Below, in pieces: positions 18,336 through 63,032 of a stretch of DNA of 64,000 nucleotides; position 1 is the stretch's first letter; each line of letters begins with the position of its first letter. Origin of the DNA: Pseudomonadota bacterium. GTDB lineage: Bacteria > Pseudomonadota > Gammaproteobacteria > Burkholderiales > JABEVD01. The translations under genes were made by a program, and so were the position numbers. The DNA is taken from NCBI GenBank assembly GCA_021848825.1, contig JAJZTQ010000002.1, forward strand, positions 5,129-69,128, given 5' to 3'. The notes below the pieces were generated by a model, which was given only the letters and a program-made list of their open reading frames with translations, was not told where the DNA came from and searched no databases.

Positions 18336-18378
18336 GCTGATGCTACCTTGACCTTAGTGGCAACAGGAAAACTGAAAA

Positions 18379-26008: not shown

Positions 26009-26244
26009 AGAAGCTGATCTTCCTGATGCTTTTCCTTGTTCAATCCCAATCCTTCGCCGATACGCTGGGGCGGCTTTTCTTCACGAAGCAGGAAAGGGAG
26101 GCGATGGACAGACGGAGCAGGAATCCTGGAAAGGCGACCGAAGCGAATCCGGAGGCGAGCGGAACCGTCCAGAGGAAAGACGGCGGAGAGACAGTCTGGA
26201 TCAATGGCGTTCCCCATCATGTGGAACGGGACAAGAAAAAATGA
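26005..26244 (+). CDS. small secreted protein of unknown function
   Basis: 79 aa from the internal ATG 26005 of the track ORF (ATGA overlap on both sides). Signal peptide MKKLIFLMLFLVQSQSFA, then LGRLFFTKQEREAMD. Confidence 0.5.
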   Translation: MKKLIFLMLFLVQSQSFADTLGRLFFTKQEREAMDRRSRNPGKATEANPEASGTVQRKDGGETVWINGVPHHVERDKKK

Positions 26245-27434: not shown

Positions 27435-28120
27435 AAAAAGGATTCACGCTGGTCGAAATCGCAGTCGTTCTGGCAATAATTGCCCTTCTCGTCGGCGGCA
27501 TGCTGATCCCGATTTCCGCCCAGATAGAAGAGCAGAAGATCATGGATACGCAGGATTCCATCGATCTGGTCAAGGAGGCGTTGATCGGATATGCGGTCGT
27601 CAACAAGCATCTTCCCTGCCCCGACAAGACTGTGCCAACAGGCGCCGGTACTGCGAACGACGGTCTCGAGGATGCGGCAGCAAGCGGTTCCTGCGTAAGT
27701 CAGGAGGGCAATATTCCCTGGGTCACTTTGGGCGTCTCGGGGCTGGATGCATGGGGTAACCGCATCCATTACAGCGTGACACCCGCTTTTTCGAATTCTC
27801 TCGCCAAATTCACGCTCCACTCGACCGGTACATTGCGGATATGTCAGACGTCGACCTGCGCAAACGTAGTGGCCAATGAAATTCCCGCCGTCGTCCTTTC
27901 CTATGGAAAGAATGGCTTCGGCGCGATCAACAGTGCCGGGCACGCCAATGTTTTACCGACGAGCGCAGACGAATTGGCCAATACCGACGGGAACCTCGAT
28001 TTTGTAAGCCGTACCGGCACTCCTTCCGCAGCCGCTTCGGGGCAGTTCGACGACATCGTCGACTGGGTCTCCCCCTATGTGCTCTTCGATCGAATGGTTT
28101 CGGCAGGGGTCTTGCCTTGA
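27431..28120 (+). CDS. prepilin-type minor pilin/pseudopilin
   Basis: MKKG/FTLVEIAVVLAIIALLVGG N-methylation motif. Start trimmed to ATG 27431 (ATGA overlap). Confidence 0.8.
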   Translation: MKKGFTLVEIAVVLAIIALLVGGMLIPISAQIEEQKIMDTQDSIDLVKEALIGYAVVNKHLPCPDKTVPTGAGTANDGLEDAAASGSCVSQEGNIPWVTLGVSGLDAWGNRIHYSVTPAFSNSLAKFTLHSTGTLRICQTSTCANVVANEIPAVVLSYGKNGFGAINSAGHANVLPTSADELANTDGNLDFVSRTGTPSAAASGQFDDIVDWVSPYVLFDRMVSAGVLP

Positions 28121-28872
28121 AGACGATCGCAAGATATACGCTGCTCGAAGCGCTCAGGAACAAAATGCTCTGGCTGATTCTGCCGATTCTTCTCCTCGGC
28201 CTTTCCTTTTCGCATTTTCTTCAGCGGACAGCCATCACCGAGAGCAGCGAGATCCAGGCGGGCTCCCTTGCCTTGATGGAGAGGACAGGGGCGGTGTTCG
28301 TCATGGTTTCCTTTGTCGTGGGGGGCATCTCAAGGGAGTACCAGGAAAAGGGGATGGAATTCTTCCTCGCCTTGCCGATGGGCAGGACCAGCTATCTTTT
28401 CGGCAAGCTTCTGGGATATGCATGCTGTTCGCTCCTGCTTGCCATTCTTTTCACCTTGCCGTTCTTCCTGAGCAACTCGCCTGTCTCGGCTTCGATCTGG
28501 GGCATTTCGCTCTTTCTCGAACTCGCTTTGATGAGTTGTGTGAGCCTCTTTTTCTCGATATCGCTGACCCAGATGCCCCTGGCGCTCGCGGCGGTTTCAG
28601 GCTTCTACCTGCTTTCACGCTCGATGGGGGCGATCATGCTGATCATGAAGGGCCCTCTCGCGGTTCACGGATTCTTGGAGGATATCGCCGACAGGGCGAT
28701 TTCGCTTGTCTCCTTCGTTCTCCCTTCGCTCGACGATTTCACCAGGACCGGATGGATCCTCTATCAGGAAACCAAATGGCAGGTTCTCCTGCCTGTTCTC
28801 GTCCAGACTGCGATTTACCTCTTGCTGATCTCCGCTGCAGCGCTCTTCGACTTCGAGAGGAGGGAAATCTGA
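28117..28872 (+). CDS. ABC-2 family (NosY/GldF-like) permease
   Basis: TTG start in a TTGA overlap with the pilin stop. IARYTLLEALRNKMLW and REYQEKGMEFFLALPMGRTSYLFGKLLG motifs typical of ABC-2 permeases. Six hydrophobic helices. Confidence 0.65.
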   Translation: MKTIARYTLLEALRNKMLWLILPILLLGLSFSHFLQRTAITESSEIQAGSLALMERTGAVFVMVSFVVGGISREYQEKGMEFFLALPMGRTSYLFGKLLGYACCSLLLAILFTLPFFLSNSPVSASIWGISLFLELALMSCVSLFFSISLTQMPLALAAVSGFYLLSRSMGAIMLIMKGPLAVHGFLEDIADRAISLVSFVLPSLDDFTRTGWILYQETKWQVLLPVLVQTAIYLLLISAAALFDFERREI

Positions 28873-28886
28873 ACGCGTCATGGCAG

Positions 28887-29567
28887 GTGAAATGGGTCTT
28901 GATGATTTCGCTGATTCTTCAGATTGTCTGGCACGCCTTTCGGTCAGACGAAAGTCCTGCTGCGCAAAAGCTTCATGATCCGCCTTCGCCCACGGATCTG
29001 AGGCTCGCGTCTTTCGGCGAATCCGAGATGGCCTCGAGATTCATGATGCTCTATCTGCAGTCATTCGACAGCCAGCCCGGAATCGTCATCCCTTACCGGG
29101 ATCTGGACTATCGGCGGGTCAAGAAATGGCTGAAGACGAGCCTGATCCTCGATGAAAGGGATCAATATCCGCTCTTTGCCGCAGCCGGCCTCTATCTCGG
29201 CGTGGAAGACGACAGCAGGAAAAGGATCATGCTCGATTTCATCTACAGGGCATTCGTGAAAAACCCGGAAGAAAGATGGCAATGGCTGGCAAGGGGGATA
29301 TGGGTTGCAAAATACCAGCTTCACGATCTTCCCCTTGCCCTTCGATATGCGGAGGCGCTCGCCGGACGCAGGACCTCGAAGATGCCCGACTGGGTGAGCG
29401 AAATGCAGGTTTTCATCCTGAATGACATGAACAAAATCGATAGTGAAAGGATATTGATTGGCGCCCTTCTTGCCAATGGCAAGATACTAGACCAGAACGA
29501 GAAGTATCTTCTCGAGAGGGAGCTCGCCAGGATAGGGAGGCAAAAAAAATCCGGCGTGCTATGGTGA
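28887..29567 (+). CDS. membrane-anchored hypothetical protein
   Basis: 3' half of the 496-aa track ORF. Start placed at GTG 28887 (ATG 28902 is an alternative), giving an N-terminal anchor KWVLMISLILQIVW. No family recognised. Confidence 0.45.
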   Translation: MKWVLMISLILQIVWHAFRSDESPAAQKLHDPPSPTDLRLASFGESEMASRFMMLYLQSFDSQPGIVIPYRDLDYRRVKKWLKTSLILDERDQYPLFAAAGLYLGVEDDSRKRIMLDFIYRAFVKNPEERWQWLARGIWVAKYQLHDLPLALRYAEALAGRRTSKMPDWVSEMQVFILNDMNKIDSERILIGALLANGKILDQNEKYLLERELARIGRQKKSGVLW

Positions 29568-29596
29568 ATCAAACAAACCTTTTGGAGCGGCAAATC

Positions 29597-30244
29597 ATGG
29601 AAAAAGAAACCGGTTTCACATTGGTCGAGATAGCCATCGTGCTGGTCATCATAGGGCTGATTCTTGCTGCGGTATTGAAGGGGCAGGAAATGATCACCCA
29701 GGGCAAGATCAAGGGCATCATCAACGATTTCAACGCAGTCTTGACCGCCTACAATGGCTACCAGGACAGGTACAAGGCGATTCCGGGGGATGATCCCAAT
29801 TCGGGGGCGAGGTGGACCACGCTGGGGGTAAGCGGAAACGGCAATGGCACGGTCGACGGAGAATACAACGACGCAACTGGCGGAACTTCGGAAGCGACCT
29901 ATTTCTGGGCAGATCTGAAATTCGCCAATTTCTTTCCGGGATTGACCGACACTGCAGCCCACGCCGAGGCCCAGCCTTCGAATTCAGTCGGAGGGATCAT
30001 AGGGGTTCAGAACAATGCGCTGGGGATGTCGGGGCTCTCGATCTGCATGTCGGCGGTGGTATACAAGATTGCGCAATCCGTGGACACGCAGATCGACGAC
30101 GGCAATGCGATGACAGGTTCGGTTCGCGCAACCGTTCAGACCGCTGGCGCCACGCTCGCCCAGTTGCCTGACCTGACGGGAGGGGCTCCGGCAGCCAATT
30201 ACGTTGACGGCAGCACCTACGTCATATGCCGCTCCATTCCCTGA
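29597..30244 (+). CDS. type IV pilin (candidate major subunit, copy 1)
   Basis: MEKETG/FTLVEIAIVLVIIGLILAAVLKGQEMITQGKIK prepilin motif. C-terminal Cys pair (SICMS...VICRS). Start trimmed to ATG 29597. Confidence 0.85.
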   Translation: MEKETGFTLVEIAIVLVIIGLILAAVLKGQEMITQGKIKGIINDFNAVLTAYNGYQDRYKAIPGDDPNSGARWTTLGVSGNGNGTVDGEYNDATGGTSEATYFWADLKFANFFPGLTDTAAHAEAQPSNSVGGIIGVQNNALGMSGLSICMSAVVYKIAQSVDTQIDDGNAMTGSVRATVQTAGATLAQLPDLTGGAPAANYVDGSTYVICRSIP

Positions 30245-30254
30245 GGAAATTGGC

Positions 30255-30950
30255 GTGAAAGGGGGGCAGTCGGGCTTCACGCTGGTCGAGATCGCGATCG
30301 TTCTCGTGATCATCGGCCTTCTGATAGGCGGCGTGCTCAAGGGCCAGGAAATGATCACCCAGGGCAGGATCAAGAGCGCGATCATCGATTTTTCCGGCAT
30401 CAGTGCCGCCTATTACGCCTACATAGACCGATACAAGGCGCTGCCCGGAGACGACAGCCAGGCCACAGCCAGATGGGGCGCGGCAATTCTTCCCAACAAT
30501 GCAGTCGGCAACGGCGACGGCGTGATCAGCGGACCCTACTATCAGACGGCGGTAGGCACCGGCGCTACAAACGAGACGGCAGACTTCTGGTCCCACCTCA
30601 GGGCGGCAGGGCTCGTGACCGGAAACAGTCTCGCCAATCCGGTCACGCTTCCCATCAATTCTTCCGGCGGCATCATCGGGGTGCAGACCGGCAATGGCGC
30701 TGCGGCACCCGGGGAGGTGCTGCTGACAGCCGGCGCAGGCACGGGACTCATCGGTTTCATGATCTGCTCGACCCGGCTTCCGGACAGGGTCGCAGCGGCA
30801 GTGGATGTACAGCTGGACAACGGCAGTCCGAATTCAGGCAGCATCCGCGCCTGGCAATCAGGGGGCGCCCAGGATCCTGTTCCTGCGGCGCCCGCAGGTC
30901 CGCCCTATTCCGACAACGGCACCGCAATGTCGATATGCAGGGCGCTCTAG
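30255..30950 (+). CDS. type IV pilin (copy 2, tandem paralog)
   Basis: GTG 30255 after GAGGAA. VKGGQSG/FTLVEIAIVLVIIGLLIGGVLKGQEMITQGRIK. C-terminal Cys pair (MICST...SICRA). Confidence 0.85.
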   Translation: MKGGQSGFTLVEIAIVLVIIGLLIGGVLKGQEMITQGRIKSAIIDFSGISAAYYAYIDRYKALPGDDSQATARWGAAILPNNAVGNGDGVISGPYYQTAVGTGATNETADFWSHLRAAGLVTGNSLANPVTLPINSSGGIIGVQTGNGAAAPGEVLLTAGAGTGLIGFMICSTRLPDRVAAAVDVQLDNGSPNSGSIRAWQSGGAQDPVPAAPAGPPYSDNGTAMSICRAL

Positions 30951-50657: not shown

Positions 50658-51532
50658 TGTCTATACTCGTAGACAGGAATACCAGGGTGATGACCCAGGG
50701 CATGACCGGGAAAACGGGCATGTTCCATACCATCCAGTGCAAGCACTACGCGAACGGGAAGGAATGCTTCGTCGCCGGTGTGACGCCCGGCAAGGGCGGG
50801 CAGCATTTCGAAGGCATACCGGTTTACGACACGGTGAAGGAGGCGAAGGAAAAGACAGGGGCGAATGTTTCCGTCATCTATGTTCCCCCTCCCTTCGCGG
50901 CGGCCGCCATCCTGGAGGCGGTGGATGCCGAGCTCGATCTCGTGATATGCATCACGGAGGGGATTCCCGTGCACGACATGATCAACGTGCGCTACAGGAT
51001 GAAGGAAAAGAAAACGCTGCTCATCGGTCCGAACTGTCCGGGCATCATCACCCCCGATGAAGTCAAGATAGGCATCATGCCCGGACACATCCACAAGAAG
51101 GGCAAGATAGGCGTCGTTTCCCGTTCAGGCACCCTGACTTACGAGGCGGTGGGGCAGCTGATGGAAGTTGGGCTGGGCCAGTCGACCTGCGTGGGCATCG
51201 GAGGCGACCCGGTGAACGGCATGAAGCATGTCGACGTGATGAAGCTTTTCAACGAGGATCCTGAAACGGAGGCGGTGATCATGGTCGGAGAAATCGGCGG
51301 AAACGACGAGGAAATCTGCTCGAGATGGATCAGGGAAAACATGAAGAAGCCGGTGGTCGGATTCATTGCAGGACTCACGGCGCCTCCCGGCAAGCGCATG
51401 GGCCATGCGGGCGCGATCATTTCGGGCGGCGAGGGAGGGGCGGAAGAAAAGCTTGCCGTGATGGAGGAATGCGGCATCAAAGTGACGCGCAATCCTTCTG
51501 AAATCGGGAGGCTGCTCAAGTCGGTATTATGA
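50657..51532 (+). CDS. sucD: succinyl-CoA synthetase alpha subunit
   Basis: [30 protein letters not shown], catalytic His region [10 protein letters not shown]. Confidence 0.96.
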
Positions 51533-52215
51533 TCGACTGGTCGGGACTCTTCCAGATCATCGCCATAGACATCCTGCTCGGAGGGGACAATGCGGTGGTG
51601 ATCGCCCTTGCATGCAGGGATCTTCCGGAAGAAAAGAAGAAAAAGGCGATGATCTGGGGCATGGCGGGCGCGGTCGGCATCCGGGTCCTGCTGCTGTTCT
51701 TTGCCCTCGCCCTGCTCAAATTGCCCTATCTCAAGATGATCGCCGCGCTCTTCCTCTTCTGGATAGGCATCAATCTGCTCGGGGGAGAGGGGCGAGAGGG
51801 ACAGGCTGAAACAAGGGATGGCCTCTTCTCGGCTGTCAGGACCATCGTTCTTGCCGACGCGGTGATGAGCATCGACAACGTCATCGGCGTCGCCGGGGCG
51901 GCAAAGGACAGCATGCTGCTGATCATCATCGGGATTTCGGTGAGCATTCCGGTGATATTGTGGGGAAGCAGGTTCATCCTGAAAGTGATGGACAGGTTTC
52001 CCTTCGTTATCCTTCTTGGCGCAGGTCTGATAGGATGGGTAGCGGGGGAGATGTTCGCGTCCGATGCCGCCTTGCCGGCAAAGCTTCATGCGCTTTCCAC
52101 GGCAGTGGCTGCCGCTTCGGCGGTGCTCACCGCGCTGATCGGAAAATGGCGCCAGTCGAGAAGGAAGGAAACACCGCGTGAATTCGCGAAGGATTATGGA
52201 GGGGATTCGTCGTGA
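51529..52215 (+). CDS. TerC/YjbE-family integral membrane protein
   Basis: [18 protein letters not shown] and [17 protein letters not shown] repeats. Confidence 0.85.
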
Positions 52216-52631
52216 AAATGCTTATTCCTTTGGACGGCTCGGATGCTGCGCTTCATGCGGTGGATCATGTCATCGAGACGGCGAAGTTTTATCAGGGCGG
52301 AGTGGAAGTGCATCTGCTCAATGTCCAGTTTCCCATCCTCTCCGGCAATGTACGGACATTCGTAAGCGCCGACAAGATAGAGGAATATTACAGGGAAGAG
52401 GGCATGAAGGCCCTGAAGGACGCAAGGCAGAGGCTGGATGCGGCATGCATTGCCTTTCATGTCCATATCGGCGTCGGGAGTGTCGCCGAAACCATTCTGC
52501 GTTATGCGAAGGAGACGGGATGCGACCAGATCTGCATGGCGAGGCACGGCATCGGAAAGGTTGCACTGCTCGGCTCGGTTGCCGGGAAACTGTTGCATGC
52601 TTCTGAAATCCCTGTGCTCTTCGTCAGATAG
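52212..52631 (+). CDS. universal stress protein (UspA family)
   Basis: 139 aa, ILRYAKETGCDQICMARHG...GSVAGKLLHASEIPVLFV. Confidence 0.85.
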   Translation: MKMLIPLDGSDAALHAVDHVIETAKFYQGGVEVHLLNVQFPILSGNVRTFVSADKIEEYYREEGMKALKDARQRLDAACIAFHVHIGVGSVAETILRYAKETGCDQICMARHGIGKVALLGSVAGKLLHASEIPVLFVR

Positions 52632-52697
52632 GATTACCATATATTGCGGCAGATGGTGCATAATTGTCCCGATTGTCCGTATGATTCGAAATATGAC

Positions 52698-53507
52698 ATG
52701 GATTCAAGCCGTGTACTGGAAATTGCCAGCAAATCCGATGCAGGTCTTGTGCGTTCGCACAACGAGGACAGCATCGGTTCGGATGCTTCAATCGGGCTTG
52801 CAGTCCTGGCTGATGGCATGGGCGGATACAATGCCGGGGAGGTGGCGAGCGGCATCGCCGTTTCCATGATCACATCCGGCATGAAGGCCGCGCTTTCCGG
52901 CCGGGGACAACCGGATGAGGCCAGCGGGGAAAGCATGTTGCGCGAACAGGTTGCGGCTGCAAACAGCGCGATATTCAATGCCGCAAGGCAGAGAAAGGAA
53001 TGCGAAGGCATGGGGACGACCCTCGTCGCCGCGCTTTTCTTCGATGGGAAGGTGAGCGTCGCCCATCTCGGGGACTCCCGCATGTACAGACTGCGCGGCG
53101 GGAAGCTGGAGATCATGACGCACGACCATTCCCTGCTGCAGGAGCAGCTTGACAGCGGCATGCTGACAAAGGAAGAGGCCAGGTTCTCCCAGTACAGGAA
53201 CATCGTGACGAGGGCGCTGGGAATCGAACAGGATGTGGAGATAGAGATCAGGAGCTTCGATGTGCAGCCCGACGACCTCTACCTGCTTTGTTCAGACGGG
53301 CTGAATGACATGCTCGAAGACGAGGAAATAGGGCTTGTCCTGGATACGCTGAGATCGAATCTGAAGCTGGCGGCCGAGAAGCTCGTGGCTCTCGCAAATG
53401 AAAATGGCGGGCGCGACAACATTTCGGTTATCCTCGTGAAAGTGAAGCAGGGAATCGGGGTCCAGCGCGGACTGATGTCGAGGCTCATGTCATCATTCAG
53501 GAAATAA
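52698..53507 (+). CDS. PP2C-family Ser/Thr protein phosphatase
   Basis: KSDAGLVRSHNEDS, LADGMGGYNAGEVAS, HLGDSRMYR, LCSDGLNDML, NGGRDNISVILV. Start set at ATG 52698; the upstream ATG 52644 cannot be excluded. Confidence 0.85.
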   Translation: MDSSRVLEIASKSDAGLVRSHNEDSIGSDASIGLAVLADGMGGYNAGEVASGIAVSMITSGMKAALSGRGQPDEASGESMLREQVAAANSAIFNAARQRKECEGMGTTLVAALFFDGKVSVAHLGDSRMYRLRGGKLEIMTHDHSLLQEQLDSGMLTKEEARFSQYRNIVTRALGIEQDVEIEIRSFDVQPDDLYLLCSDGLNDMLEDEEIGLVLDTLRSNLKLAAEKLVALANENGGRDNISVILVKVKQGIGVQRGLMSRLMSSFRK

Positions 53508-53521
53508 AGGGGCAGTTTATC

Positions 53522-54235
53522 ATGTCGAAATTGATTCTCAGCCTTGACGGGAAGGAGCTCAAGGAAGTCCCGCTCGACAAGGAGCGCATCCTGATAGGGA
53601 GAAAATCGCAGAACGACATCCAGATCGACGATGTCGCCGTGAGCGGCGAGCACGCAGTCGTCATCACGATTCTCAACGATTCCTTCCTTGAGGACATGGG
53701 GAGCACGAACGGCACCAGAGTCAATGGCACCAGCGTCAAGAAATACTTCCTGCAGAACCATGATGTGATAGGGATAGGGAAATACAAGCTCACCTACATC
53801 CACGAGGCGGTCCCGCGTCCCGCCATTCACGAGCCGGCCCAGCGCGCTGTGCCTGACCTCGAGAAGACGGTCATGCTGCGCCCCTCCAGCGTATCGGCGA
53901 TGCTGCCTTCCTCCGTTTCCGCGCCGGTGGAAAAGTCGGAGGAGAAGGCGCCCCCTCCTCCGCCCAAGCCATCGTCAGGCGCTGCGGTGCAGCTTCTCAC
54001 CGGACCCAGTGCCGGACGGGAGCTCGATCTCGTCAAGAACCTGACCACATTGGGCAAGCCCGGCGTACAGGTTGCGGTCATCACGAGAAGGCCGCAGGGC
54101 TTCTTCATCACGCATGTCGACGGGGAAAAATCGCCTGTGCTCAATGGCAAGCCGATAGGATTGCAGCCCCATCCCCTCAAGGACCATGATATCGTCGAGC
54201 TGCTCGGCATCAAGATGGAATTTTTTCTGAAATAG
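53522..54235 (+). CDS. FHA-domain protein (canonical N-terminal FHA, Pro-rich linker, degenerate C-terminal FHA-like domain)
   Basis: N-domain IGRKSQNDIQIDDVAVSGEHAVV...GSTNGTRVNG. Linker EKAPPPPPKPS. C-domain TTLGKPGVQVAVI...VLNGKPIG...HDIVELLGIKMEF lacks the R/SxxH phosphothreonine-contact residues. Confidence 0.8.
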   Translation: MSKLILSLDGKELKEVPLDKERILIGRKSQNDIQIDDVAVSGEHAVVITILNDSFLEDMGSTNGTRVNGTSVKKYFLQNHDVIGIGKYKLTYIHEAVPRPAIHEPAQRAVPDLEKTVMLRPSSVSAMLPSSVSAPVEKSEEKAPPPPPKPSSGAAVQLLTGPSAGRELDLVKNLTTLGKPGVQVAVITRRPQGFFITHVDGEKSPVLNGKPIGLQPHPLKDHDIVELLGIKMEFFLK

Positions 54236-54243
54236 GCAAAACA

Positions 54244-55008
54244 GTGAAGCTCAGGGTTCTCGGGTGCAGCGGCGGGATAGGAGGAGAATTGCAGACCACT
54301 TCCTTTCTTCTGGATGATGACATACTGATCGATGCGGGAACCGGGACCGGAAGGCTGTCCCTGGAAGCGATGCGCAACATAGATCATATCTTCCTCACCC
54401 ACTCCCATCTCGATCATGTCGCATTCATTCCGCTGCTTGTCGACAGCGTGGGCTATCTCAGGCAGAAGCCGATAACGGTCCATGCGATTCCTGAAACCAT
54501 AGCGGCATTGAAGCAGCATCTTTTCAACTGGGTGATATGGCCCGATTTCAGCGTGATCCCGAACACGGAATCTCCCTATCTGGTTTTCGAGGAGATTTCG
54601 GTGGGGGAAACGGTCAGGCTGGGGGATCGGAAAATCACGGCCTTGCCTGCAGTCCATACCGTACCTGCAGTCGGCTATCATCTGGAAAGCGGAAAGGGAA
54701 GTCTCGTTTTCAGCGGCGATACCACCACCAACGATGCATTCTGGGAACGGGTGAATGAAATCGACGATCTCAGATACCTGATCATCGAGACCGCCTTTTC
54801 AAACGGCGAAAGGGAAATCGCGATCCTTTCGAAGCATCTTTGTCCCAGCCTTTTGGGCGAAGAACTGGCTAAACTTGAAAAGGATGTGCCTGTCTACATC
54901 ACGCATCTCAAGCCTGGGGAATTGTCGCTGATCATGGCGGAGATCGGCGAGGGCATATCGGGGGTCAGAACAGAAATGCTTGTAAACGAACAGATATTCG
55001 AAATATGA
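54244..55008 (+). CDS. class II-like 3',5'-cyclic-nucleotide phosphodiesterase (MBL fold)
   Basis: MKLRVLGCSGGIGG...TSFLLDDDILIDAGTG...IFLTHSHLDHVAFIPLL matches the HxHLDH class II PDE signature region. GTG start. Confidence 0.7.
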   Translation: MKLRVLGCSGGIGGELQTTSFLLDDDILIDAGTGTGRLSLEAMRNIDHIFLTHSHLDHVAFIPLLVDSVGYLRQKPITVHAIPETIAALKQHLFNWVIWPDFSVIPNTESPYLVFEEISVGETVRLGDRKITALPAVHTVPAVGYHLESGKGSLVFSGDTTTNDAFWERVNEIDDLRYLIIETAFSNGEREIAILSKHLCPSLLGEELAKLEKDVPVYITHLKPGELSLIMAEIGEGISGVRTEMLVNEQIFEI

Positions 55009-55009
55009 C

Positions 55010-57388
55010 ATGTCCAAACTGACAGACATATCGAGCGGCAGCATCCCTGTGCCGGGGGAAAGCCTTGCCGATGTCAGCATCAAGCTGAATTTCACCAAGG
55101 CCCTCCAGTCCCTGACCAACAGGATTCATGCCACGGGAAATTTCGACGAGATCATCTTCGATCTCGGCAAGGACATCTGCACCCTTTTCAACGCGGACAG
55201 GATCACGATCTACGTCGTGAGCGAAGACAAGACATCCATCGTCTCGAAAATCAAGACAGGGCTTTCCTCGTTCAAGGACTTGAAGCTGCCGATTTCCGAT
55301 CAAAGCATCGCGGGCTATGTCGCGAGGCACAAGAAGATGGTGAACGTCAAGGATGTGTACGACGAAAAGGAGCTGCAGTCCTACAGTCCCCAGCTTCACT
55401 TCATGAGGGAGGTGGACAAGCGCACGGGCTACCGGACCAAGCAGATGCTCGTCGCGCCGATAGTCGATGCGGAAAACGAGCTCGTGGGCGTGCTTCAGAT
55501 CATCAACAACAAGTTCGGCCTGCCATTTCAGCCGATGACGGAAGAGGGGGTGGTCGAACTCGCCAAGACCCTCGCCATCGCATTCAAGCAGAGACAGCGT
55601 CCCCATCAGCTCGTCAGGACGCGTTTCGACGTGCTGATAGCGGAAGGCGCGATTTCTGCAGTCGAGTTCGATCTTGCGTCCAGGTCCGCGAGAAGGCGGG
55701 ACGTGCCGCTGGAAGACGTGCTGCTGGACGAATTCCAGGTGAAGCCGGCTGCATTGGGCAAGTCGCTTGCTCACTTCTTCGACGTGGAATACGAGCCTTT
55801 CAGGTCTGACAGGACAAGACCCGCCGATCTCTTGAAGAACATCAAGCGGGATTATGTCGAAGCGAATCAATGGCTGCCTGTCGAGGAGGCCAAGGAAGGC
55901 ATCGTCATCATCAGCCCGGACCCGGAGAGGGCGCAGGGTTCCCGCATTCCCCACAATGTCTTTCCGAAGAGAAAGCTCGTTTTCAGGGTCTGTTCCCATC
56001 GGGAATTCGCGCAGACGGTCAACCTTTTTTATGCCGAAGAAGGCGGTTCTTCCATAGGAGATCTGCTTTCTTCCATGGATGACGAATCGGAGAGCGAGGA
56101 CATTTCCGACGAGCTTTCTGCTGCAGCGGACAACGAACTCGTCAAGCTCGTCAACAAGATCATCACGGATGCGCACAGGATGGGGGCATCCGACATCCAT
56201 ATCGAACCTTCTCCTGGAAAGGGAAAGACGCTGGTCAGGTTCCGCAAGGACGGAACGCTGCTGCCTTATGTCGAAGTCCCCGCCTCCTACAGAAACGCCA
56301 TCGTTGCCCGCGTCAAGATCATGTGCGATCTGGATATCTCCGAAAAGAGAAGGCCGCAGGACGGCAAGATCCTTTTCAGGAAATTCGCGCCGCTCAACAT
56401 CGAATTGCGTGTCGCGACCATCCCCTCGGCGGGAGGGGTGGAAGACATCGTGATGAGGATTCTGGCATCGGGCGACCCCATTCCCCTTGAAAAGATAGGC
56501 TTCTCTCAAAAGGCGTTCGATACGCTGAAATCGATCGTCACGAAGCCTTACGGCCTTTTCCTGGTCTGCGGACCGACAGGTTCGGGAAAGACGACGACGC
56601 TCCACTCGGTGCTCGGATACATCAATACCCCGCAGACCAAGATATGGACTGCCGAGGATCCGGTCGAGATCACCCAGAAGGGGTTGCGGCAGGTTCAGAT
56701 GAATCCCAAGGCCGGCCTCACTTTCGCGACGGCGATGCGCGCCTTTCTCCGCGCCGATCCGGATGTGATCATGGTGGGCGAAATGCGCGACAAGGAGACC
56801 ACATCGGTAGGCATCGAGGCGTCCCTCACCGGGCACCTCGTGATGTCGACGCTTCACACCAACAGCGCACCCGAGAGCATCGTCAGGCTGCTCGACATGG
56901 GCATGGATCCTTTCAATTTCTCCGATGCCATTCTCGGCATACTGGCGCAGAGGCTGATCAAGCGATTGTGCAGGCATTGCAGGAAAGCCTCGGTTGCAAC
57001 GGAACGGGAAATCAGGCAGCTCCTTGCCGAATACTGCGAGGAGCTGAAGCATACTTCGGCCTGGAAGCAGGATTCAGAAGCGGTTCTGAAGAAGATCTAC
57101 GAAGAATGGGCTGGAAGCTACGCGAATGAAAAAGGCGAATTCGTCCTTCATCATCCTGTCGGCTGCCCCGAATGCAGCGGCACGGGATACAGCGGCCGTC
57201 AGGGCATATTCGAACTGCTCAAGGGCACGGACGAGATCAAGCGGCATATCCAGGAAAGGGCGCAGGTTTCAACGCTTTTTGCGACCGCGCTTGACGAAGG
57301 CATGCGCACCCTGAAGCAGGACGGTATAGAAAAGGTGCTTCAGGGCATCACCGACATGCATCAGGTGAGAACGGCCTGCGTCAAATAA
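55010..57388 (+). CDS. GspE/PilB-family secretion ATPase with N-terminal GAF domain
   Basis: 792 aa. GAF-like region approx aa 30-195 (ADRITIYVV...LVAPIVDAENELVGVLQIINN), T2SSE_N-like region, Walker A GPTGSGKTTT, DPDVIMVGEMRD, GHLVMSTLHTN, Zn motif CRHC...CPEC. Confidence 0.85.
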   Translation: MSKLTDISSGSIPVPGESLADVSIKLNFTKALQSLTNRIHATGNFDEIIFDLGKDICTLFNADRITIYVVSEDKTSIVSKIKTGLSSFKDLKLPISDQSIAGYVARHKKMVNVKDVYDEKELQSYSPQLHFMREVDKRTGYRTKQMLVAPIVDAENELVGVLQIINNKFGLPFQPMTEEGVVELAKTLAIAFKQRQRPHQLVRTRFDVLIAEGAISAVEFDLASRSARRRDVPLEDVLLDEFQVKPAALGKSLAHFFDVEYEPFRSDRTRPADLLKNIKRDYVEANQWLPVEEAKEGIVIISPDPERAQGSRIPHNVFPKRKLVFRVCSHREFAQTVNLFYAEEGGSSIGDLLSSMDDESESEDISDELSAAADNELVKLVNKIITDAHRMGASDIHIEPSPGKGKTLVRFRKDGTLLPYVEVPASYRNAIVARVKIMCDLDISEKRRPQDGKILFRKFAPLNIELRVATIPSAGGVEDIVMRILASGDPIPLEKIGFSQKAFDTLKSIVTKPYGLFLVCGPTGSGKTTTLHSVLGYINTPQTKIWTAEDPVEITQKGLRQVQMNPKAGLTFATAMRAFLRADPDVIMVGEMRDKETTSVGIEASLTGHLVMSTLHTNSAPESIVRLLDMGMDPFNFSDAILGILAQRLIKRLCRHCRKASVATEREIRQLLAEYCEELKHTSAWKQDSEAVLKKIYEEWAGSYANEKGEFVLHHPVGCPECSGTGYSGRQGIFELLKGTDEIKRHIQERAQVSTLFATALDEGMRTLKQDGIEKVLQGITDMHQVRTACVK

Positions 57389-57389
57389 T

Positions 57390-59519
57390 TCAGTCCTTCA
57401 TCTCCCTTTTCTTGCGGTAGCTCGACAGCAGCTTGTACGCGATCAGTCCGAGCATGATCAGTATCAGTGCCAGGATGCCGTAGAAAACATAGGGATGGGC
57501 ATAGAGAAAGGAGGATGCGAAAGAGATGTCCCCCTTCTCCCCGGTGGTGTATTTTTTCCCGACGGAGATCGACACCACGTCATAGTTCGGCACATTGAGC
57601 TTGATCAGCGAAACGCCGCCTTTCATCCTCGCCAGTATGTCCGGCTGCAGTAGGGCATCGCCGAGCTTGGCAACGTCGCCGTCGTCCTGCGCCGTCATGA
57701 GCACAACGGACCTGCCTTTCTTGTATGGCGATTCGAATTCCATGACAAGTCCGGTGCCGTTTCCGAGTCCGCTCAGCTGCTTGCTGAATGAAATCGTTGT
57801 TTCGCTGTCCCAGCCCCTGCTGACGGGATAGGGTATGGTGGCGATGCCGTGCAGTTGTACGGGCGCGCGCGCCATGATCGACTCTGGAATGGAGGAGGAT
57901 TTCCCGATGACCAGTATTTCTCCTTCCCAGTTCTTCGGCTCGCTGAAGGAGATTCGGGTTTCGAAGAGGGGGAAACCGTTCTTCTGGGTGATCATTCCTA
58001 TCATGTCGAGCGCCGCGTCGATCGAGGCGTCATCGGGTTTGGGCAGATAGACGATGGTCTTGAACCCGTCAGGCCACCTCGTGAAGGGAAAGCCGTTGAG
58101 CGAGAAGAGTTCGAGCTTGGGCAATTCGACGAAATGCGGCATGGGCGGAAAGAAAAGCGTCGAATTTCCGAAAATCGTCACGAAAAGCCCATCCGTTATG
58201 TCGACATCGCATACCTGGTGCTGGGTATTGAGATAGGGCTTGAATGAAATCGTGTTGGTTCCCGGCTTGAACAGGTAGGTCGGGATATCCATCCTGTAGT
58301 CCTTGATGTAATTGCCATCAGGATTGTTGAGGTGGATATCGCGAAACTCCTTGCCATTCACGTTAATGCTGAGCGAGGAATCCTGGCGCAAGCCTGAACC
58401 GTAGGAAAGGTTCAATATCAGTTTTGCATACTGGTTCTGCCTGATCAGAAAGTCGGGCGGGAGCCTGAAGGTGAGGATAGATGCGGCATCGACAAAACCG
58501 TGGAAGCTGTGGGAATCCATCCCCAGCGTCTTGAAATCATAGACCTTGTCTGAAGAAAGCACTTCTCTTCCGCCATACATCGAAATGTCGGGCATGGTGA
58601 AGCTGTAGGCGCGCAATTCATCCGTTCCCGGATAAGGGAGGGACATGTTGGTGAAGGTTTCGGCAGCGATCTTGATCGCCTTGGCCGTGTCGCCGGACAC
58701 CACAATCAGGGCGTGCTGATCGTCCTCTGCTCCGGCTTCGGGCAAATGGAGAATCTTGATGTAGCCGCCCTGTCCCTCGGGAAGGGTCTTGCCGTATCTG
58801 GCGAGCACCCCGTCTGCAAACCGGGTCGTTCCGATCAACACATTGTCCATCCCCGGCTTGATATCGAGAGAATGCGAGAACTTTACCTGGCGATAATCGA
58901 AATGCCTCGCGATGCCGGATGCGACGATTCCGGCCAGCGTCGTGATTTCGGGGGAAGTGGCATCCATGACCAGGTTGATCGAGGCCTCGGGAACCTGTTT
59001 CGGGTCGAGAATCAGACCGATTGCTTCGGCCAGATGCAGCGGCAGCGGCTTCAGGCTGTAATCGAGCTGGATGGTGGAATCGGTCAGGCTGATGTTTGTC
59101 CAGAGATCCGGGGAACAGATCTGTTCGCACTGGCCGGAGAGATAATGCTGGACGACCTGGAAAGAAACGGTGTTGTATCCTGCCTTCAGGTGGTCAGGGG
59201 GAAGCGGCACATCCACCACGCCTTCCGGCGACTGGGTATTGAGCTTGAATTGCGAGACGGACATGCCATTGAGCTGCACCGCCATCTGGGAGCTGCTTGC
59301 AATCATGTTGTTCGAAGCCATGTAGTGCAGCTTCAGGGTGGCGCCGTGCACATCCCATCTTTCAGGAATGGGAATGGACAAATTCTGAACCGAGCGGATG
59401 CATTTCAGTTCGAGGGTGGGAACCGGCGAGAACTTCTGCAGCGGCAGGGTGAGTGTATCGGCAAATGCTGTCGTGCTCAGGAACAGCATGGCAAGGATCA
59501 GGCTGAATGATTTTGTCAT
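57390..59519 (-). CDS. bcsB: BcsB-like periplasmic subunit of a cellulose-synthase-type complex
   Basis: 709 aa. Signal peptide MTKSFSLILAMLFLSTTAFA, large periplasmic body, single C-terminal TM anchor (FYGILALILIMLGLIAYKLL), directly downstream of bcsA. Family call rests on architecture and context. Confidence 0.7.
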   Translation of the reverse strand: MTKSFSLILAMLFLSTTAFADTLTLPLQKFSPVPTLELKCIRSVQNLSIPIPERWDVHGATLKLHYMASNNMIASSSQMAVQLNGMSVSQFKLNTQSPEGVVDVPLPPDHLKAGYNTVSFQVVQHYLSGQCEQICSPDLWTNISLTDSTIQLDYSLKPLPLHLAEAIGLILDPKQVPEASINLVMDATSPEITTLAGIVASGIARHFDYRQVKFSHSLDIKPGMDNVLIGTTRFADGVLARYGKTLPEGQGGYIKILHLPEAGAEDDQHALIVVSGDTAKAIKIAAETFTNMSLPYPGTDELRAYSFTMPDISMYGGREVLSSDKVYDFKTLGMDSHSFHGFVDAASILTFRLPPDFLIRQNQYAKLILNLSYGSGLRQDSSLSINVNGKEFRDIHLNNPDGNYIKDYRMDIPTYLFKPGTNTISFKPYLNTQHQVCDVDITDGLFVTIFGNSTLFFPPMPHFVELPKLELFSLNGFPFTRWPDGFKTIVYLPKPDDASIDAALDMIGMITQKNGFPLFETRISFSEPKNWEGEILVIGKSSSIPESIMARAPVQLHGIATIPYPVSRGWDSETTISFSKQLSGLGNGTGLVMEFESPYKKGRSVVLMTAQDDGDVAKLGDALLQPDILARMKGGVSLIKLNVPNYDVVSISVGKKYTTGEKGDISFASSFLYAHPYVFYGILALILIMLGLIAYKLLSSYRKKREMKD

Positions 59520-59536
59520 TTTATGGATATTTCTTG

Positions 59537-62224
59537 CTAGATATTGTTTTCGCGTGGTTTGGCAGGTCTTCTGAAAAATATGGGTGATGAGCGTATCAGC
59601 TGCAGGCTGCTTCCGTATACGTATTTGACGATTCTGGGATAAGTCGACGTGTCCGGAATGAATTCAGTGCCGCAAAGAAGCTTGTTGCCGCGCTTCACCG
59701 CCCTTCTTATCCTGCAGTCGAACTGATATTGGGCACCCTCTTTGGTCGTGATGTCGAGCGTCACAGGCTCGCCCCCATGCAATGGCAGGGGCAATTCAAT
59801 CAATATCCCGATGCCGGAGAGCGATATATCCATGATATTGCCTTGGACGCTCGCATTCAGGCTGGGGAAGTAAACCATGGCCCGTCCTTTGCCTTCGATG
59901 CGCTGAAACTTGCGAACTGGCCTCTTTTTCACCAGTTCAAAAATCCTGGCCTGCCCCTGGTAAAAATAATAAACAGTTCTGCTCAGGGTCATCAACAACA
60001 TGTCAAGCAGCAAAGACGAGGTAAGGCACTGTATCAAGAGCCTCCAGAGGAATTTCATGGAGTCTGAAAAGAAAGCGAATCCGCTTACCCAGATTGCCTT
60101 GACGCCCATTTTCGAAAAATGCCAGAGCATGTGGAATGTATCGCGTTTCCTCGCCTTCGCGTTCCAGATTTCCTGCCATCTTTGGCTGTCGCCGAAGACG
60201 TAGCTGATGATTTCTGCAGCAGGCGCGGCCAGGAATTCGCTCCCGCAGACATACCTGCCGCTCATCTTTTCGATGTGCCTGATATTGTTTTCGAAGCGAT
60301 ATTCACGGCCATAGCTGTCCCTGACTTCCAGAATGATCCTGTCCTGCTCCATTGGTAAAATGGACGAATCGATTTCGAAACCTATCCCTGTCCTCGAGAC
60401 GTCGCGGACTTTGCCGACGACCGATTTTCCCAGGCGCTGGAAGCGGACGATCACGTCACCGCTGGACGCTATCCGGTGAAATTGCCGCTCCTGCTTTCTC
60501 TCCCACAGCGCGCCCAGTGAAACCAGGACGATGGAAAGGTTATAAAGCGACCATGCGCCCGTCACTGCGATAACGTCGCGCATGATCGGTGTGGCAAACC
60601 ATTTTATGACTGAAAGAATCAGGGCGGCGACGTTGAAGGCGATGAGCAGGAAAAAAGGCGTTGCAATCGGACTCAGGTATTCCCTTGTGTTGAGTTTTCC
60701 CTTCGGGGTAACCTTGAATGTCGGTTTCCAGGGGTTGGCCACCGCGGAGAGGATGGCCGGAATCAGGAAAAGAGACTGGATCGTCTCGTAGATCTCCGAG
60801 AAGAAAGGGTTCCTCGAGCCGGAATAGAAAAAGTCCATGATCACCGAAATGCTCAGCACGTACGGAAGCGTGAACGAAATGATCTGAAGCCACGAGGCGT
60901 TATAGATGTTGAATCCGAGAATGAGGTAGGCGGCGGGGGCGATGAGGTAGATCACGCGCGCAAAACCGAACAGCCAGAAAAAACTGAAGTTGAAGTAATT
61001 CAGCCTTTGCCAGAAAGAAAGTCCCTTCATCTTCAGCGGGTTGTTGAACTGGGCGAGCTGTATCATGCCTTGCGCCCAGCGCGAGCGCTGGATCACATAG
61101 TCGTCATAGGTTTCCGGAGACAAGCCGCAGACCATCGGCTTGTTGACATAAATGCTCCTGTAGCCGCGCCTGTGCAGATGGAAGGCGGTTTCGACATCTT
61201 CCGTGATGGTGTTGCCGTAGAGTCCGCCTTCCTGTTCGAGATGCTTGCGCCTCAACAGCGCCGCAGATCCGCAAAAGTAGCTGGAATTCCAGAAATCCAT
61301 GGCGGGGTGAAGTTTGCGATAGAACAGGTCGCTTTCGGCATAGGGATTGGCGATGCCTGTCAGGCCCTTTTCGACTGGAGACGGGTTGATGAAAAAATGC
61401 GGCGTCTGAACGAGGAATACTTTCGGATCGACGATGAAATGCCCTACGGTATTCTTCAGGATATCCTTTGTCGGCACATGATCGCAGTCGAGAATCAGCA
61501 CAAGATCGCCCGAAGTGTGCTTCAGCGCATGGTTGATATTGCCGGCCTTCGCTTTCTGATTCGTTTCGCGCGTGATGTATCCGACGCCGAGTTCAGCTGC
61601 GACCTGCCTCAGGCTGCGATGCCTTTCCCATGCGTCCGTTCCGGATTCAGCATGGCTGCGCTTGTTCCGGGTGCTGCCGTCATCCAGGATATAGACATTC
61701 AGCTTGTCTTTCGGATAATCGATCTGGGCTGCCGCAGTGGCGGTAATGCGAACGATTTCTTCGGGTTCGTCATAAGTCGGGATGAGGACATCCACAGTGG
61801 GCAGCAATGCAGCATCTTCAGGCAAGGGAATGATGGGGCGATCGAGAGGCCAGACATTGATGAACATGCCGAGCAGGAGCATGACGAAACCGTATATTTC
61901 GGCAAGGTAGACGAGCATCATCGCTGCGAAATCCAGTGGGCCGGTATAGAAAAGGGTGCCGAATGTCCGCCACTGGATGTAGCGCAACCCCATGAATGTC
62001 ACCAGCAGGATCATGAGCAGGCGCCAGGGCTGCTCCCTTGATTTTTTCCAGAGGTACATCATGAAAATCAGGGCGAAGCCGCCCCATCCGAGCACCATCT
62101 GCCTGGAAAGGTCATAATATTCGTAGGTGAACTGAAGCAGATAGACAAGGGCGGCGATCAATATCGCACCGGTGGCCGCAAGCTGCAAATTGCTGTACTG
62201 TGCACGCACGCCTGTTCGGGTCAT
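59537..62224 (-). CDS. bcsA: BcsA-like processive GT2 beta-glycan synthase with two PilZ modules
   Basis: GT2 motifs DDGS (181-184), DCDH (246-249), TED (341-343), QRSRW (379-383). PilZ 1 RQFHR (580-584) plus DVSRTG (608-613). PilZ 2 RKFQR (771-775) plus DISLSG (799-804). Confidence 0.88.
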   Translation of the reverse strand: MTRTGVRAQYSNLQLAATGAILIAALVYLLQFTYEYYDLSRQMVLGWGGFALIFMMYLWKKSREQPWRLLMILLVTFMGLRYIQWRTFGTLFYTGPLDFAAMMLVYLAEIYGFVMLLLGMFINVWPLDRPIIPLPEDAALLPTVDVLIPTYDEPEEIVRITATAAAQIDYPKDKLNVYILDDGSTRNKRSHAESGTDAWERHRSLRQVAAELGVGYITRETNQKAKAGNINHALKHTSGDLVLILDCDHVPTKDILKNTVGHFIVDPKVFLVQTPHFFINPSPVEKGLTGIANPYAESDLFYRKLHPAMDFWNSSYFCGSAALLRRKHLEQEGGLYGNTITEDVETAFHLHRRGYRSIYVNKPMVCGLSPETYDDYVIQRSRWAQGMIQLAQFNNPLKMKGLSFWQRLNYFNFSFFWLFGFARVIYLIAPAAYLILGFNIYNASWLQIISFTLPYVLSISVIMDFFYSGSRNPFFSEIYETIQSLFLIPAILSAVANPWKPTFKVTPKGKLNTREYLSPIATPFFLLIAFNVAALILSVIKWFATPIMRDVIAVTGAWSLYNLSIVLVSLGALWERKQERQFHRIASSGDVIVRFQRLGKSVVGKVRDVSRTGIGFEIDSSILPMEQDRIILEVRDSYGREYRFENNIRHIEKMSGRYVCGSEFLAAPAAEIISYVFGDSQRWQEIWNAKARKRDTFHMLWHFSKMGVKAIWVSGFAFFSDSMKFLWRLLIQCLTSSLLLDMLLMTLSRTVYYFYQGQARIFELVKKRPVRKFQRIEGKGRAMVYFPSLNASVQGNIMDISLSGIGILIELPLPLHGGEPVTLDITTKEGAQYQFDCRIRRAVKRGNKLLCGTEFIPDTSTYPRIVKYVYGSSLQLIRSSPIFFRRPAKPRENNI

Positions 62225-62225
62225 A

Positions 62226-63032
62226 TCACCTTGCGGATTGTGCAGGGCTGATAGAATCGCTTACGGAGCGCCGGCTGTCCCTCGTCTGTTCCTTGCCGAC
62301 CAAAGCCATGACTGCCGCCGCGATGCCTATGAGCAGCACGGCCATCAGGAAGAATTTCATGCCGAATGATCTTGCAGGGGGAGAACTCTGGGCAGGCTTG
62401 TCGTCCAGGCTCCTGCCCTGCTTGTCGAGCTCTATTTCCTTCGGATTCCAGAATACCTTGTATGCGTTGAACGCATCCTTCTTGCCTTTGAGCGTGATCT
62501 GCTTGATGAACCGGCAATAGTTTTCGCTCTTGTCTGAAAGGCTGTTGTAGGTTTCTTCGGAGATATAGATTTCTCCTGCCGTGGCGGAAGATTCGAAGCG
62601 CGATGCGGTGTTGACGACGTCTCCTGCAATGTCGTTCTTTTCGATGATGCATTTTCCGGTATGCATGCCGATCCGCATCAATACGGGCGTCTTGTATTTT
62701 TTCGACATGTTGAGTCCGTCCATGCCTTGCTGGATGCGCACAGCCGCACGGACCGCATCCTGGGCATTTTCGAAATAGGAGAGCGTGCCGTCCCCGATGG
62801 ACTTGATGAACACCCCGTTGTTTTCCTTGATCGCCGGCAACACGATCTGGTTCTGGTCCTTGATCAGCGTGCGGCTGACCAGGTCACCTTCGGTCTCTGC
62901 TATGGTGGTCGAGCCCTTGAGATCGGTGAATACGACCGTCAGTACCTTGGTGAACTTGTCGTTGAAAACTGCTTCCAGCTTTTCGCGCTCTTCTAGATAC
63001 TTGTCCAGTTCATCCTGTTTAGATTCGTCCAC
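62226..63032 (-). CDS. class III nucleotidyl cyclase (adenylate-type residues) with C-terminal membrane tail
   Basis: GTG start 63032. VVFTDLKGST, IKSIGDGTL, NDIAGDVVNTASRFES. C-terminal TM FFLMAVLLIGIAAAVMALVG. Stop lies 1 nt from the bcsA ATG. Confidence 0.85.
   Translation of the reverse strand: MDESKQDELDKYLEEREKLEAVFNDKFTKVLTVVFTDLKGSTTIAETEGDLVSRTLIKDQNQIVLPAIKENNGVFIKSIGDGTLSYFENAQDAVRAAVRIQQGMDGLNMSKKYKTPVLMRIGMHTGKCIIEKNDIAGDVVNTASRFESSATAGEIYISEETYNSLSDKSENYCRFIKQITLKGKKDAFNAYKVFWNPKEIELDKQGRSLDDKPAQSSPPARSFGMKFFLMAVLLIGIAAAVMALVGKEQTRDSRRSVSDSISPAQSAR

Follow-up and report, generated by a model that had tools for sequence, protein, structure and literature searches.

A reduced signalling cassette in a betaproteobacterial contig: PP2C, FHA, phosphodiesterase and GAF-ATPase genes as the probable core of a cAMP- and phosphothreonine-controlled PilB-like motor

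The 64,000-nucleotide stretch analyzed here in its entirety (hereafter the window; positions 5,129 to 69,128 of contig JAJZTQ010000002.1, GenBank assembly GCA_021848825.1, Burkholderiales) encodes, in a compact array, a PP2C-type protein phosphatase, a two-domain FHA protein, a phosphodiesterase of the metallo-beta-lactamase (MBL) fold and an ATPase of the secretion superfamily that carries a GAF domain at its N-terminus. Comparison with related loci suggests that these four genes are, rather more probably than any other reading we considered, the retained core of a betaproteobacterial signalling-motor cassette in which cyclic AMP (cAMP) and threonine phosphorylation would jointly control a PilB-like motor; the window appears to hold a reduced version of an array that comprises 8–10 genes elsewhere. 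The original prediction, made from the letters of the window, listed four same-strand genes separated by 14, 8 and 1 nt. All four open reading frames (ORFs) are indeed found on the forward strand, recomputation of the gaps gives the same values, and Pfam and NCBIfam annotation agrees with the identity assigned to each gene (Table 1).

The strongest evidence comes from gene neighborhoods. A genome scan over one genome per species, started with an alignment of the GAF and MshEN region of the ATPase, yields at least 537 matching stretches. From these, 80 loci were retrieved and their six-frame ORFs were searched with the cassette proteins using phmmer; upstream counts refer to the 62 species-level loci whose upstream flank extends for at least 9 kb, and downstream counts to the 61 loci with a downstream flank of at least 4 kb. 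On the upstream side of the orthologous ATPase, the PP2C gene is found in 62/62 loci and the FHA gene in 61/62, together with a CHASE2-class III adenylate cyclase in 51/62 and a CHASE2-Ser/Thr kinase in 48/62, the kinase lying sometimes beyond the available flank. Downstream of the ATPase, 59 of the 61 loci encode a GAF-HD-GYP phosphodiesterase and 52 a type IVa pilin. Co-occurrence of the four genes, whose absence from other genomes had been named in advance as the result that would speak against an operon, is thus near-universal beside orthologous ATPases.

In the three relatives for which gene calls and Pfam annotation were combined, the full order is CHASE2-kinase, PP2C, FHA-FHA', CHASE2-cyclase, MBL protein, a variable slot, GAF-PilB-like ATPase, GAF-HD-GYP (GAF-HD_5) and pilin, with the CHASE2-kinase directly 5' of PP2C. 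The variable slot contains either a protein combining a cyclic nucleoside monophosphate (cNMP)-binding domain with rhodanese or a pair of TPR and FecR proteins, and many relatives encode additional cNMP-binding proteins within the cassette; the core genes are kept while the slot and the flanks vary. The pilin is a canonical type IVa prepilin with the leader MKQIQKG/FTLIELM and a C-terminal Cys pair, and the GAF-HD-GYP protein has an intact HHExxDGxGYP motif and a GAF domain similar to that of the ATPase (DQKTGYRS). The kinase and the cyclase, that is, the writers of both layers, seem to be part of the ancestral cassette. The two regulatory layers proposed for the window, Ser/Thr phosphorylation and a cyclic nucleotide, are accordingly visible in most relatives, whose cassette encodes both a kinase and an adenylate cyclase, next to a GAF domain of the cNMP type. 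The carriers number hundreds of environmental betaproteobacterial genomes, including iron-oxidizing Gallionellaceae, Sulfuricella, Rhodocyclales and Pelomicrobium. Some Gallionellaceae encode a second, soluble Ser/Thr kinase a few kb 3' of the cassette, followed by a rhodanese gene (locus L003, 15845-17131; locus L022, 17775-19364); the L003 kinase is fused to a cNMP-binding domain.

In a neighbor-joining tree of the ATPases, the cassettes that lack both the kinase and the cyclase fall in at least 5 separate clades, so that the writers appear to have been lost from the locus repeatedly while the erasers, the readers and the motor stayed together; one Gallionella clade also contains kinase-only and cyclase-only intermediates. 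The window belongs to a reduced, writer-less clade, with loci L007-L009 as nearest relatives, and its homologs carry the names Burkholderiales, Gallionella and Sulfuricella. The claim that no Ser/Thr kinase is present in the window holds in a phmmer search with the cassette kinase of a relative. The window is the only examined locus that also lacks the GAF-HD-GYP and pilin genes, and the same type of search over the six-frame ORFs of the window reveals no remnants of these two genes or of a kinase gene. Their place is taken by a convergent bcsB-bcsA operon: the stop codon of the ATPase gene (which ends at 57388) and that of bcsB (57390-57392, reverse strand) are 1 nt apart, with no terminator-like structure between them. 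This arrangement points to a recent rearrangement with loss of the GAF-HD-GYP and pilin genes, which all close relatives have at this position.

Table 1. Genes and domains of the window locus and its neighbors (window coordinates)
Feature	Position	Strand	Remark
PP2C-type Ser/Thr phosphatase (Stp1/IreP family), 269 aa	52698..53507	+	phosphothreonine eraser
Two-domain FHA protein, 237 aa	53522..54235	+	phosphothreonine reader
MBL-fold phosphodiesterase, 254 aa	54244..55008	+	probable cAMP eraser
GAF-MshEN-T2SSE ATPase, 792 aa	55010..57388	+	PilB-like hexameric motor with N-terminal sensor
GAF domain of ATPase, aa 47-191	55148..55582	+	predicted cyclic-nucleotide-binding type
MshEN/GSPII-type N1 domain of ATPase, aa 267-345	55808..56044	+	without c-di-GMP-binding motif
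T2SSE catalytic region of ATPase, aa 373-786	56126..57367	+	
TerC	51529-52215	+	upstream syntenic neighbor, may be co-transcribed
Usp	52212-52631	+	upstream syntenic neighbor, may be co-transcribed
Stand-alone, tail-anchored class III cyclase	62226..63032	-	first gene of convergent bcsA-bcsB operon; adenylate-type residues

The mechanism that we propose on the basis of these gene sets has two arms. Cyclic AMP made by a class III cyclase would bind to the cNMP-type GAF domain at the N-terminus of the ATPase and alter either the activity of the hexameric motor or its docking; in relatives it would also bind the GAF domain of the HD-GYP protein, and the MBL phosphodiesterase would reset the signal. 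In the other arm, a Hanks-type kinase would phosphorylate a threonine, the best candidate being the linker residue Thr116 (TxxL) of the FHA protein itself and the alternative a site in the ATPase; the canonical FHA domain would read the phosphothreonine and the PP2C phosphatase would erase it. The output would be a type IV filament assembled from the pilin that is encoded beside the cassette in relatives. Since the kinase and the CHASE2-cyclase are absent from the window locus, their functions would be provided there in trans by kinases and cyclases encoded elsewhere, a candidate being the adenylate cyclase that heads the convergent cellulose synthase operon.

Among class III cyclases, the specificity residue pairs K/D and K/T denote adenylate cyclases. 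At these positions the CHASE2-cyclase of one relative shows Lys (KYMGD) and Thr (TVMG), and the window cyclase Lys (KSIGD) and Asp (DIAG); because the cyclases carry these adenylate-type residues, cAMP is the likely messenger. The window cyclase, which the original prediction did not mention, matches Pfam Guanylate_cyc with 68 bits and has a C-terminal hydrophobic segment. A single nucleotide separates the end of its gene from bcsA-PilZ (62224 to 59537, reverse strand), which is followed by bcsB (span of the three genes, 57390-63032); the cyclase gene is translationally coupled to bcsA and located 5 kb from the cassette on the other strand. A cAMP cyclase at the head of a cellulose synthase operon dependent on cyclic diguanylate (c-di-GMP) is unusual. 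This cyclase is not a remnant of the lost CHASE2-cyclase, to which it shows only 29 bits of similarity. Beyond the end of the window on the same contig (L001, 18296-22379), bcsC is followed by genes for a STAS protein and a HATPase_c_2-cNMP_binding-SpoIIE protein, that is, a cNMP-sensing partner-switching module beside the bcs genes.

A more elaborate variant of this scheme, possible but on the whole doubtful, is that the full cassette acts as a self-contained coincidence detector, with the two CHASE2 receptors (the kinase and the adenylate cyclase) sensing one extracytoplasmic cue, c-di-GMP being switched off through the cAMP-type GAF-HD-GYP protein, and the motor of the window being rewired to the cAMP of the bcs-operon cyclase. 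If so, the type IV filament motor would be under direct post-translational control by cAMP, a mode not among the known regulators of PilB, and in the window filament assembly would be coupled to cellulose production.

The phosphothreonine arm is represented in the window by two proteins. The PP2C protein scores 251.9 bits against NCBIfam NF033484, the Stp1/IreP equivalog (cut-off 230), and also matches Pfam PP2C_2/PP2C. Public gene calls start it at TTG 52644, which fits the N-termini of relatives less well than ATG 52698; the latter gives the N-terminus MDSSRVLEIASKSD, in agreement with the alignment of relatives. The N-terminal domain of the FHA protein (residues ~1-94) exceeds the gathering score of Pfam FHA (PF00498; 73.9 bits, residues 24-86), and G26-R27, S41-x-x-H44 and N63-G64 are invariant in the family alignment. 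The C-terminal domain (residues ~154-237) is conserved more strongly than the N-terminal one and lacks the phosphothreonine-binding residues (GR, SxxH, STNGT). It gives sub-threshold matches to the FHA clan and YscD only (15-19 bits), and an hhalign comparison aligns it in register with the N-terminal domain (E-value 1.7e-4, probability 50%). The fold of this domain was judged by hhalign, the AlphaFold2 (AF2) model of the protein, with a predicted local distance difference test (pLDDT) score of 63, being of low confidence and too poor for a decision on the fold. Of the proposal that the protein combines one canonical and one degenerate FHA domain, the first half is therefore firm and the second moderately supported. 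The linker between the domains is variable and rich in Pro and Ala, with a single conserved island of the consensus DFEKT(M/V)xLRP (DLEKTVMLRP in the window), in which Thr116 is invariant and followed by Leu at +3 (TxxL); this residue is a plausible kinase site and FHA ligand.

The same linker threonine enters into the alternative that we consider the most serious, albeit unlikely: the cassette is real, the two layers do not converge, and the kinase, PP2C and FHA proteins act on another target, e.g., envelope or polysaccharide machinery, with only the cAMP branch (cyclase, MBL protein and GAF domain) touching the motor. No phospho-acceptor in the ATPase is identifiable from the sequence, the invariant TxxL threonine could make the FHA protein a GarA/OdhI-like switch for an unlinked target, and in full cassettes up to four genes separate PP2C and FHA from the ATPase. 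The gene neighborhoods speak for convergence instead: 61-62 of the 62 genomes have PP2C and FHA together with the ATPase, the two remain adjacent even in loci that have lost kinase, cyclase and variable genes, and in the reduced cassettes they lie directly 5' of the MBL and ATPase genes, with gaps of 1-14 nt. The initial idea that two layers converge on one hexameric motor ATPase thus finds support in comparative genomics, through co-occurrence and the presence of the writers in relatives, while the physical convergence on the ATPase is deduced rather than observed.

The ATPase itself has all the catalytic motifs of its superfamily. It matches Pfam T2SSE (PF00437) with 388 bits, GAF with 42.7 bits and MshEN (PF05157) with 32.5 bits (cut-off 23.1), and contains the Walker A motif GPTGSGKT at position 521, the Asp box EDPVE at 549, the Walker B motif DPDVIMVGEMRD at 583 and the His box GHLVMSTLH at 608. 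A tetracysteine Zn-binding motif (CRHC at 654, CPEC at 719) is typical of extension ATPases, and with these CxxC pairs and the GSPII/MshEN-type N1 domain the protein qualifies as an extension-type ATPase. Among proteins of solved structure, the catalytic half is most similar to Thermus PilF (347 bits), followed by Myxococcus xanthus and Geobacter PilB (312-316 bits) and Vibrio GspE (300 bits), with PilT at 115 bits or less; for residues 195-400, which include the N1 region, the best matches are again M. xanthus and Geobacter PilB, and neither Vibrio cholerae MshE nor the N1E domain of GspE is found among the solved-structure matches.

The GAF domain appears to be clearly of the cyclic-nucleotide-binding type. 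Nineteen of the 20 top matches among solved structures are GAF domains from cyclases or phosphodiesterases under cNMP control, headed by Anabaena CyaB2 (1YKD, E-value 1.2e-26) and including PDE6, PDE2A, PDE10A and PDE5; the remaining match, at rank 2, is the GAF-HD-GYP protein PmGH, for which no GAF ligand has been identified. The residues D136-x-x-T139-G-Y-R-T143 are invariant in the ATPase family; D-x-x-T-G-Y-R-T is a pattern that we take to correspond to the nucleotide-contacting residues in the structure of PDE2A GAF-B. The MshEN domain presents a different picture. The c-di-GMP receptor motif of such domains consists of tandem 24-residue units, RLGxx(L/V/I)(L/V/I)xxG(L/V/I)(L/V/I)xxxxLxxxLxxQ. 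The best match in the ATPase has 6 of the 11 specified positions, with the R, both G and the Q missing, and 120 members of the ATPase family have 6-7 of 11, compared with 10/11 and 8/11 in a positive control from the window, an MSHA-like ATPase (21095-22792). With the motif degenerate throughout the family and intact in the control, control by c-di-GMP through MshEN was rejected as the primary input. The control protein, a 565-residue T2SSE ATPase with canonical tandem MshEN motifs, belongs to a second, MSHA-like type IV filament cluster of the window (17130-30950, forward strand), which also encodes an AAA_22 protein, a secretin, a TPR protein, a T2SSF platform protein and two prepilin-like ORFs with GFTLVEIAIV (29561-30244 and 30204-30950).

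The original prediction placed the ATPase in the GspE family, as a motor for type II secretion or type IV filaments. The ATPase assignment stands; the similarity to PilB and the linkage to pilin in relatives make a type IV filament likelier than type II secretion. We regard it as quite unlikely that the protein drives a type II secretion-like export or is a stand-alone signalling ATPase rather than a pilus assembly motor. Such a role would be in keeping with nearly equal, sub-cut-off scores of the PilB and GspE models in NCBIfam, with the lack of adjacent PilC/GspF, PilM or GspL genes (and, in the window, of an adjacent pilin gene), and with the fact that distant family members are orphan genes. 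It is countered by the N1 region, which matches PilB proteins and not the N1E domain of GspE, by the nearest relationship of the catalytic half to PilF and PilB, and by the canonical type IVa prepilin gene that follows the cassette in 52/61 relatives.

The MBL protein probably resets the cyclic nucleotide signal. Public gene calls begin it at 54289 (239 residues); GTG 54244 appears to be the better start because it yields 254 residues, the length common to more than 100 homologs, in which the first 14 residues are nearly invariant (N-terminus MKLRVLGCSGGIGG). The protein matches Pfam Lactamase_B_2 with 62 bits and PDEase_II (PF02112) with 54 bits (cut-off 23.7), the latter only over profile positions 78-167 of 340. 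It contains the HSHLDH motif at residues 53-58 and a complete set of metal ligands (H53, H55, D57, H58, H138, D159 and H221), all invariant in the alignment of homologs. The best sequence match among solved structures is yeast PDE1 (4OJV), with which it has in common HxHLDH and an H-x-F-N-x-x-I-W-P-D segment. A Foldseek search with the AF2 model (pLDDT 89) retrieves YhfI, BA1088, RNase Z, PDE1 and Apyc1; YhfI, BA1088 and RNase Z come out on top, PDE1 has the highest query-normalized TM-score (0.80), and the fold comparison does not set PDE1 and Apyc1 apart from YhfI and RNase Z.

In comparison with the class II phosphodiesterases (yeast PDE1, Vibrio CpdP) and Apyc1, the window protein has the same MBL fold, HxHLDH and H-x-F-N-x-x-I-W-P-D motifs and complete metal site. 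It differs from yeast PDE1 in size (254 versus 369 residues), aligns to a quarter of the PDEase_II profile and misses the NCBIfam cut-off. Thus, the class II assignment made initially is upheld by the PDEase_II gathering score and the HxHLDH motif and weakened by the partial profile match and by the affinity to the RNase Z/PDE1/Apyc1 branch. Sequence and model together point to a probable cNMP phosphodiesterase of that branch, not a proven class II enzyme.

There is a small chance, about as small as that of a secretion ATPase, that this protein is not a cAMP/cGMP phosphodiesterase and belongs instead with other diesterases of the RNase Z/ELAC/PhnP/YhfI branch, its substrate being, e.g., 2',3'-cNMP, a linear dinucleotide or RNA. 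The highest NCBIfam matches are RNase Z models, all far below their cut-offs; the model for cyclic-nucleotide-degrading phosphodiesterases (NF041851) scores lower still, 39 bits against a cut-off of 400. The top Foldseek neighbors and the short PDEase_II alignment point in the same direction, and relatives are named "ribonuclease BN" by JGI and 3',5'-cyclic-nucleotide phosphodiesterase by NCBI. What distinguishes the window protein from RNase Z is its length of only 254 residues and the lack of the RNase Z exosite, in addition to the closeness to yeast PDE1 in both sequence motifs and TM-score. The genomic context also favors a cNMP substrate: the MBL gene co-occurs with the CHASE2 adenylate cyclase in 42/62 genomes and, in loci with gene calls, lies directly 3' of the cyclase gene and near cNMP-type GAF proteins.

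An anti-phage defense or conflict system of the Pycsar-like cyclase-effector type is very improbable: PADLOC matches the cyclases to PycC models and the kinase to PD-T4-6 models and the MBL protein has Apyc1-like Pfam matches, yet these matches reflect homology of generic domains, PADLOC has no match for the FHA and MBL proteins and only a weak P-loop match of 24 bits for the ATPase, and the cassette, unlike mobile defense islands, is found in different genera at the same chromosomal site among the housekeeping genes rpoN and sucCD. A known defense system is excluded by the same PADLOC results.

Several observations weigh against a jointly controlled PilB-like motor as the function of the four genes. 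The ligand, the kinase substrate, the FHA partner and the exported filament are all deduced from sequence. The ATPase reaches the NCBIfam equivalog cut-off neither of PilB (TIGR02538, 463.5 bits versus 675.65) nor of GspE (TIGR02533, 451.8 bits versus 630.25), which is the reason to view it as an apparently distinct PilB-like subfamily, and no platform protein (PilC/GspF) gene adjoins it in the window or in relatives, nor any pilin gene in the window. The MBL protein is below every NCBIfam equivalog cut-off, with RNase Z as the top sub-threshold match, and its gene is found upstream of the orthologous ATPase in 53 of the 62 loci and missing in 9. All 80 loci come from one betaproteobacterial radiation, so that the synteny could in part be inherited gene order. 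Distant GAF-MshEN-T2SSE proteins (32-43% identity) are orphans in unrelated contexts, without the cassette; the association therefore appears to be specific to the betaproteobacterial ATPase subfamily. Finally, no sigma-70 promoter or intrinsic terminator delimits the four genes on the forward strand, the counts of such elements being below shuffle expectation and uninformative, and the four genes may be co-transcribed with sucCD-TerC-Usp. Among the distant relatives, a 1003-residue GAF+MshEN protein with 44% identity has no T2SSE Pfam match on record (L089, 10001-13012; L090, 7129-10140); its gene is preceded at ~1.4 kb by a class III cyclase gene in the opposite orientation and followed at ~10 kb by a gene for a cyclase-PilZ fusion.

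The genes upstream of the window array are housekeeping genes, rpoN-hpf-ptsN-hprK-rapZ and sucCD, followed by TerC and Usp. The sucD-TerC and TerC-Usp pairs overlap by 4 nt each, Usp is separated from PP2C by 66 nt, and no terminator is predicted between TerC, Usp and PP2C. Inspection by eye reveals a sigma-54-like TGGTGC-N5-TGT sequence, without the -12 GC, in the 66-nt gap. The position directly 5' of the cassette is conserved for TerC in 42/62 loci and for Usp in 38/62, and it is uncertain whether the two belong to the cassette. Some Usp proteins have been reported to bind cAMP.

The cassette invites comparison with three groups of known systems. In the threonine phosphorylation pathway of the Pseudomonas aeruginosa type VI secretion system (T6SS), which consists of the PpkA kinase, the PppA PP2C phosphatase and Fha1, a membrane Hanks-type kinase with an extracytoplasmic sensor, a PP2C protein and an FHA scaffold gate assembly of the nanomachine post-translationally. 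As in the full cassette, kinase, PP2C and FHA proteins are encoded together with the nanomachine. The differences are that the machine of the cassette is a PilB-like motor, the kinase has CHASE2 as its sensor, a second, degenerate FHA-like domain is present in the FHA protein, and the window locus lacks a cognate Hanks-type kinase. For the GAF domain, the precedents are the cAMP-binding GAF domains of cyanobacterial CyaB1 and CyaB2, the latter being the closest solved sequence, and Tlr0485, a cAMP-dependent GAF-HD-GYP phosphodiesterase that provides a precedent for cAMP control of HD-GYP activity and has the architecture of the protein encoded by the relatives of the window cassette. Here, unlike in these proteins, the output domain of the GAF is a secretion-superfamily ATPase.

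The third group consists of c-di-GMP-gated ATPases, namely V. cholerae MshE, M. xanthus PilB, Clostridium perfringens PilB2 and Thermus PilF, which belong to the same family and have the N1 (GSPII/MshEN) fold at the same position; the common logic is that the N-terminal domain of the motor reads a nucleotide second messenger (PMC11656802). In the cassette ATPase, the motif is degenerate, an additional cNMP-type GAF domain stands in front, and cAMP, not c-di-GMP, is predicted as the ligand. A review of 2024 on the control of PilB makes no mention of GAF or FHA domains and presents cAMP only as a transcriptional input, acting on type IV pili through Vfr/CRP-type regulators and not on the motor (PMC11656802).

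No description of the cassette was found in the searchable literature; it is conserved in hundreds of betaproteobacterial genomes and apparently undescribed. It would fall among the nucleotide- and phosphorylation-gated motors of the secretion superfamily, with the window as a reduced member. Control of the type IV pilus extension motor is now explained by c-di-GMP (through MshEN or PilZ-FimX), polar recruitment factors and transcriptional effects of cAMP. The cassette predicts two more direct inputs to the motor, cAMP through the fused GAF domain and threonine phosphorylation through the FHA adaptor, and its natural variants without writers, such as that of the window, offer material for studying how signalling cassettes are rewired.

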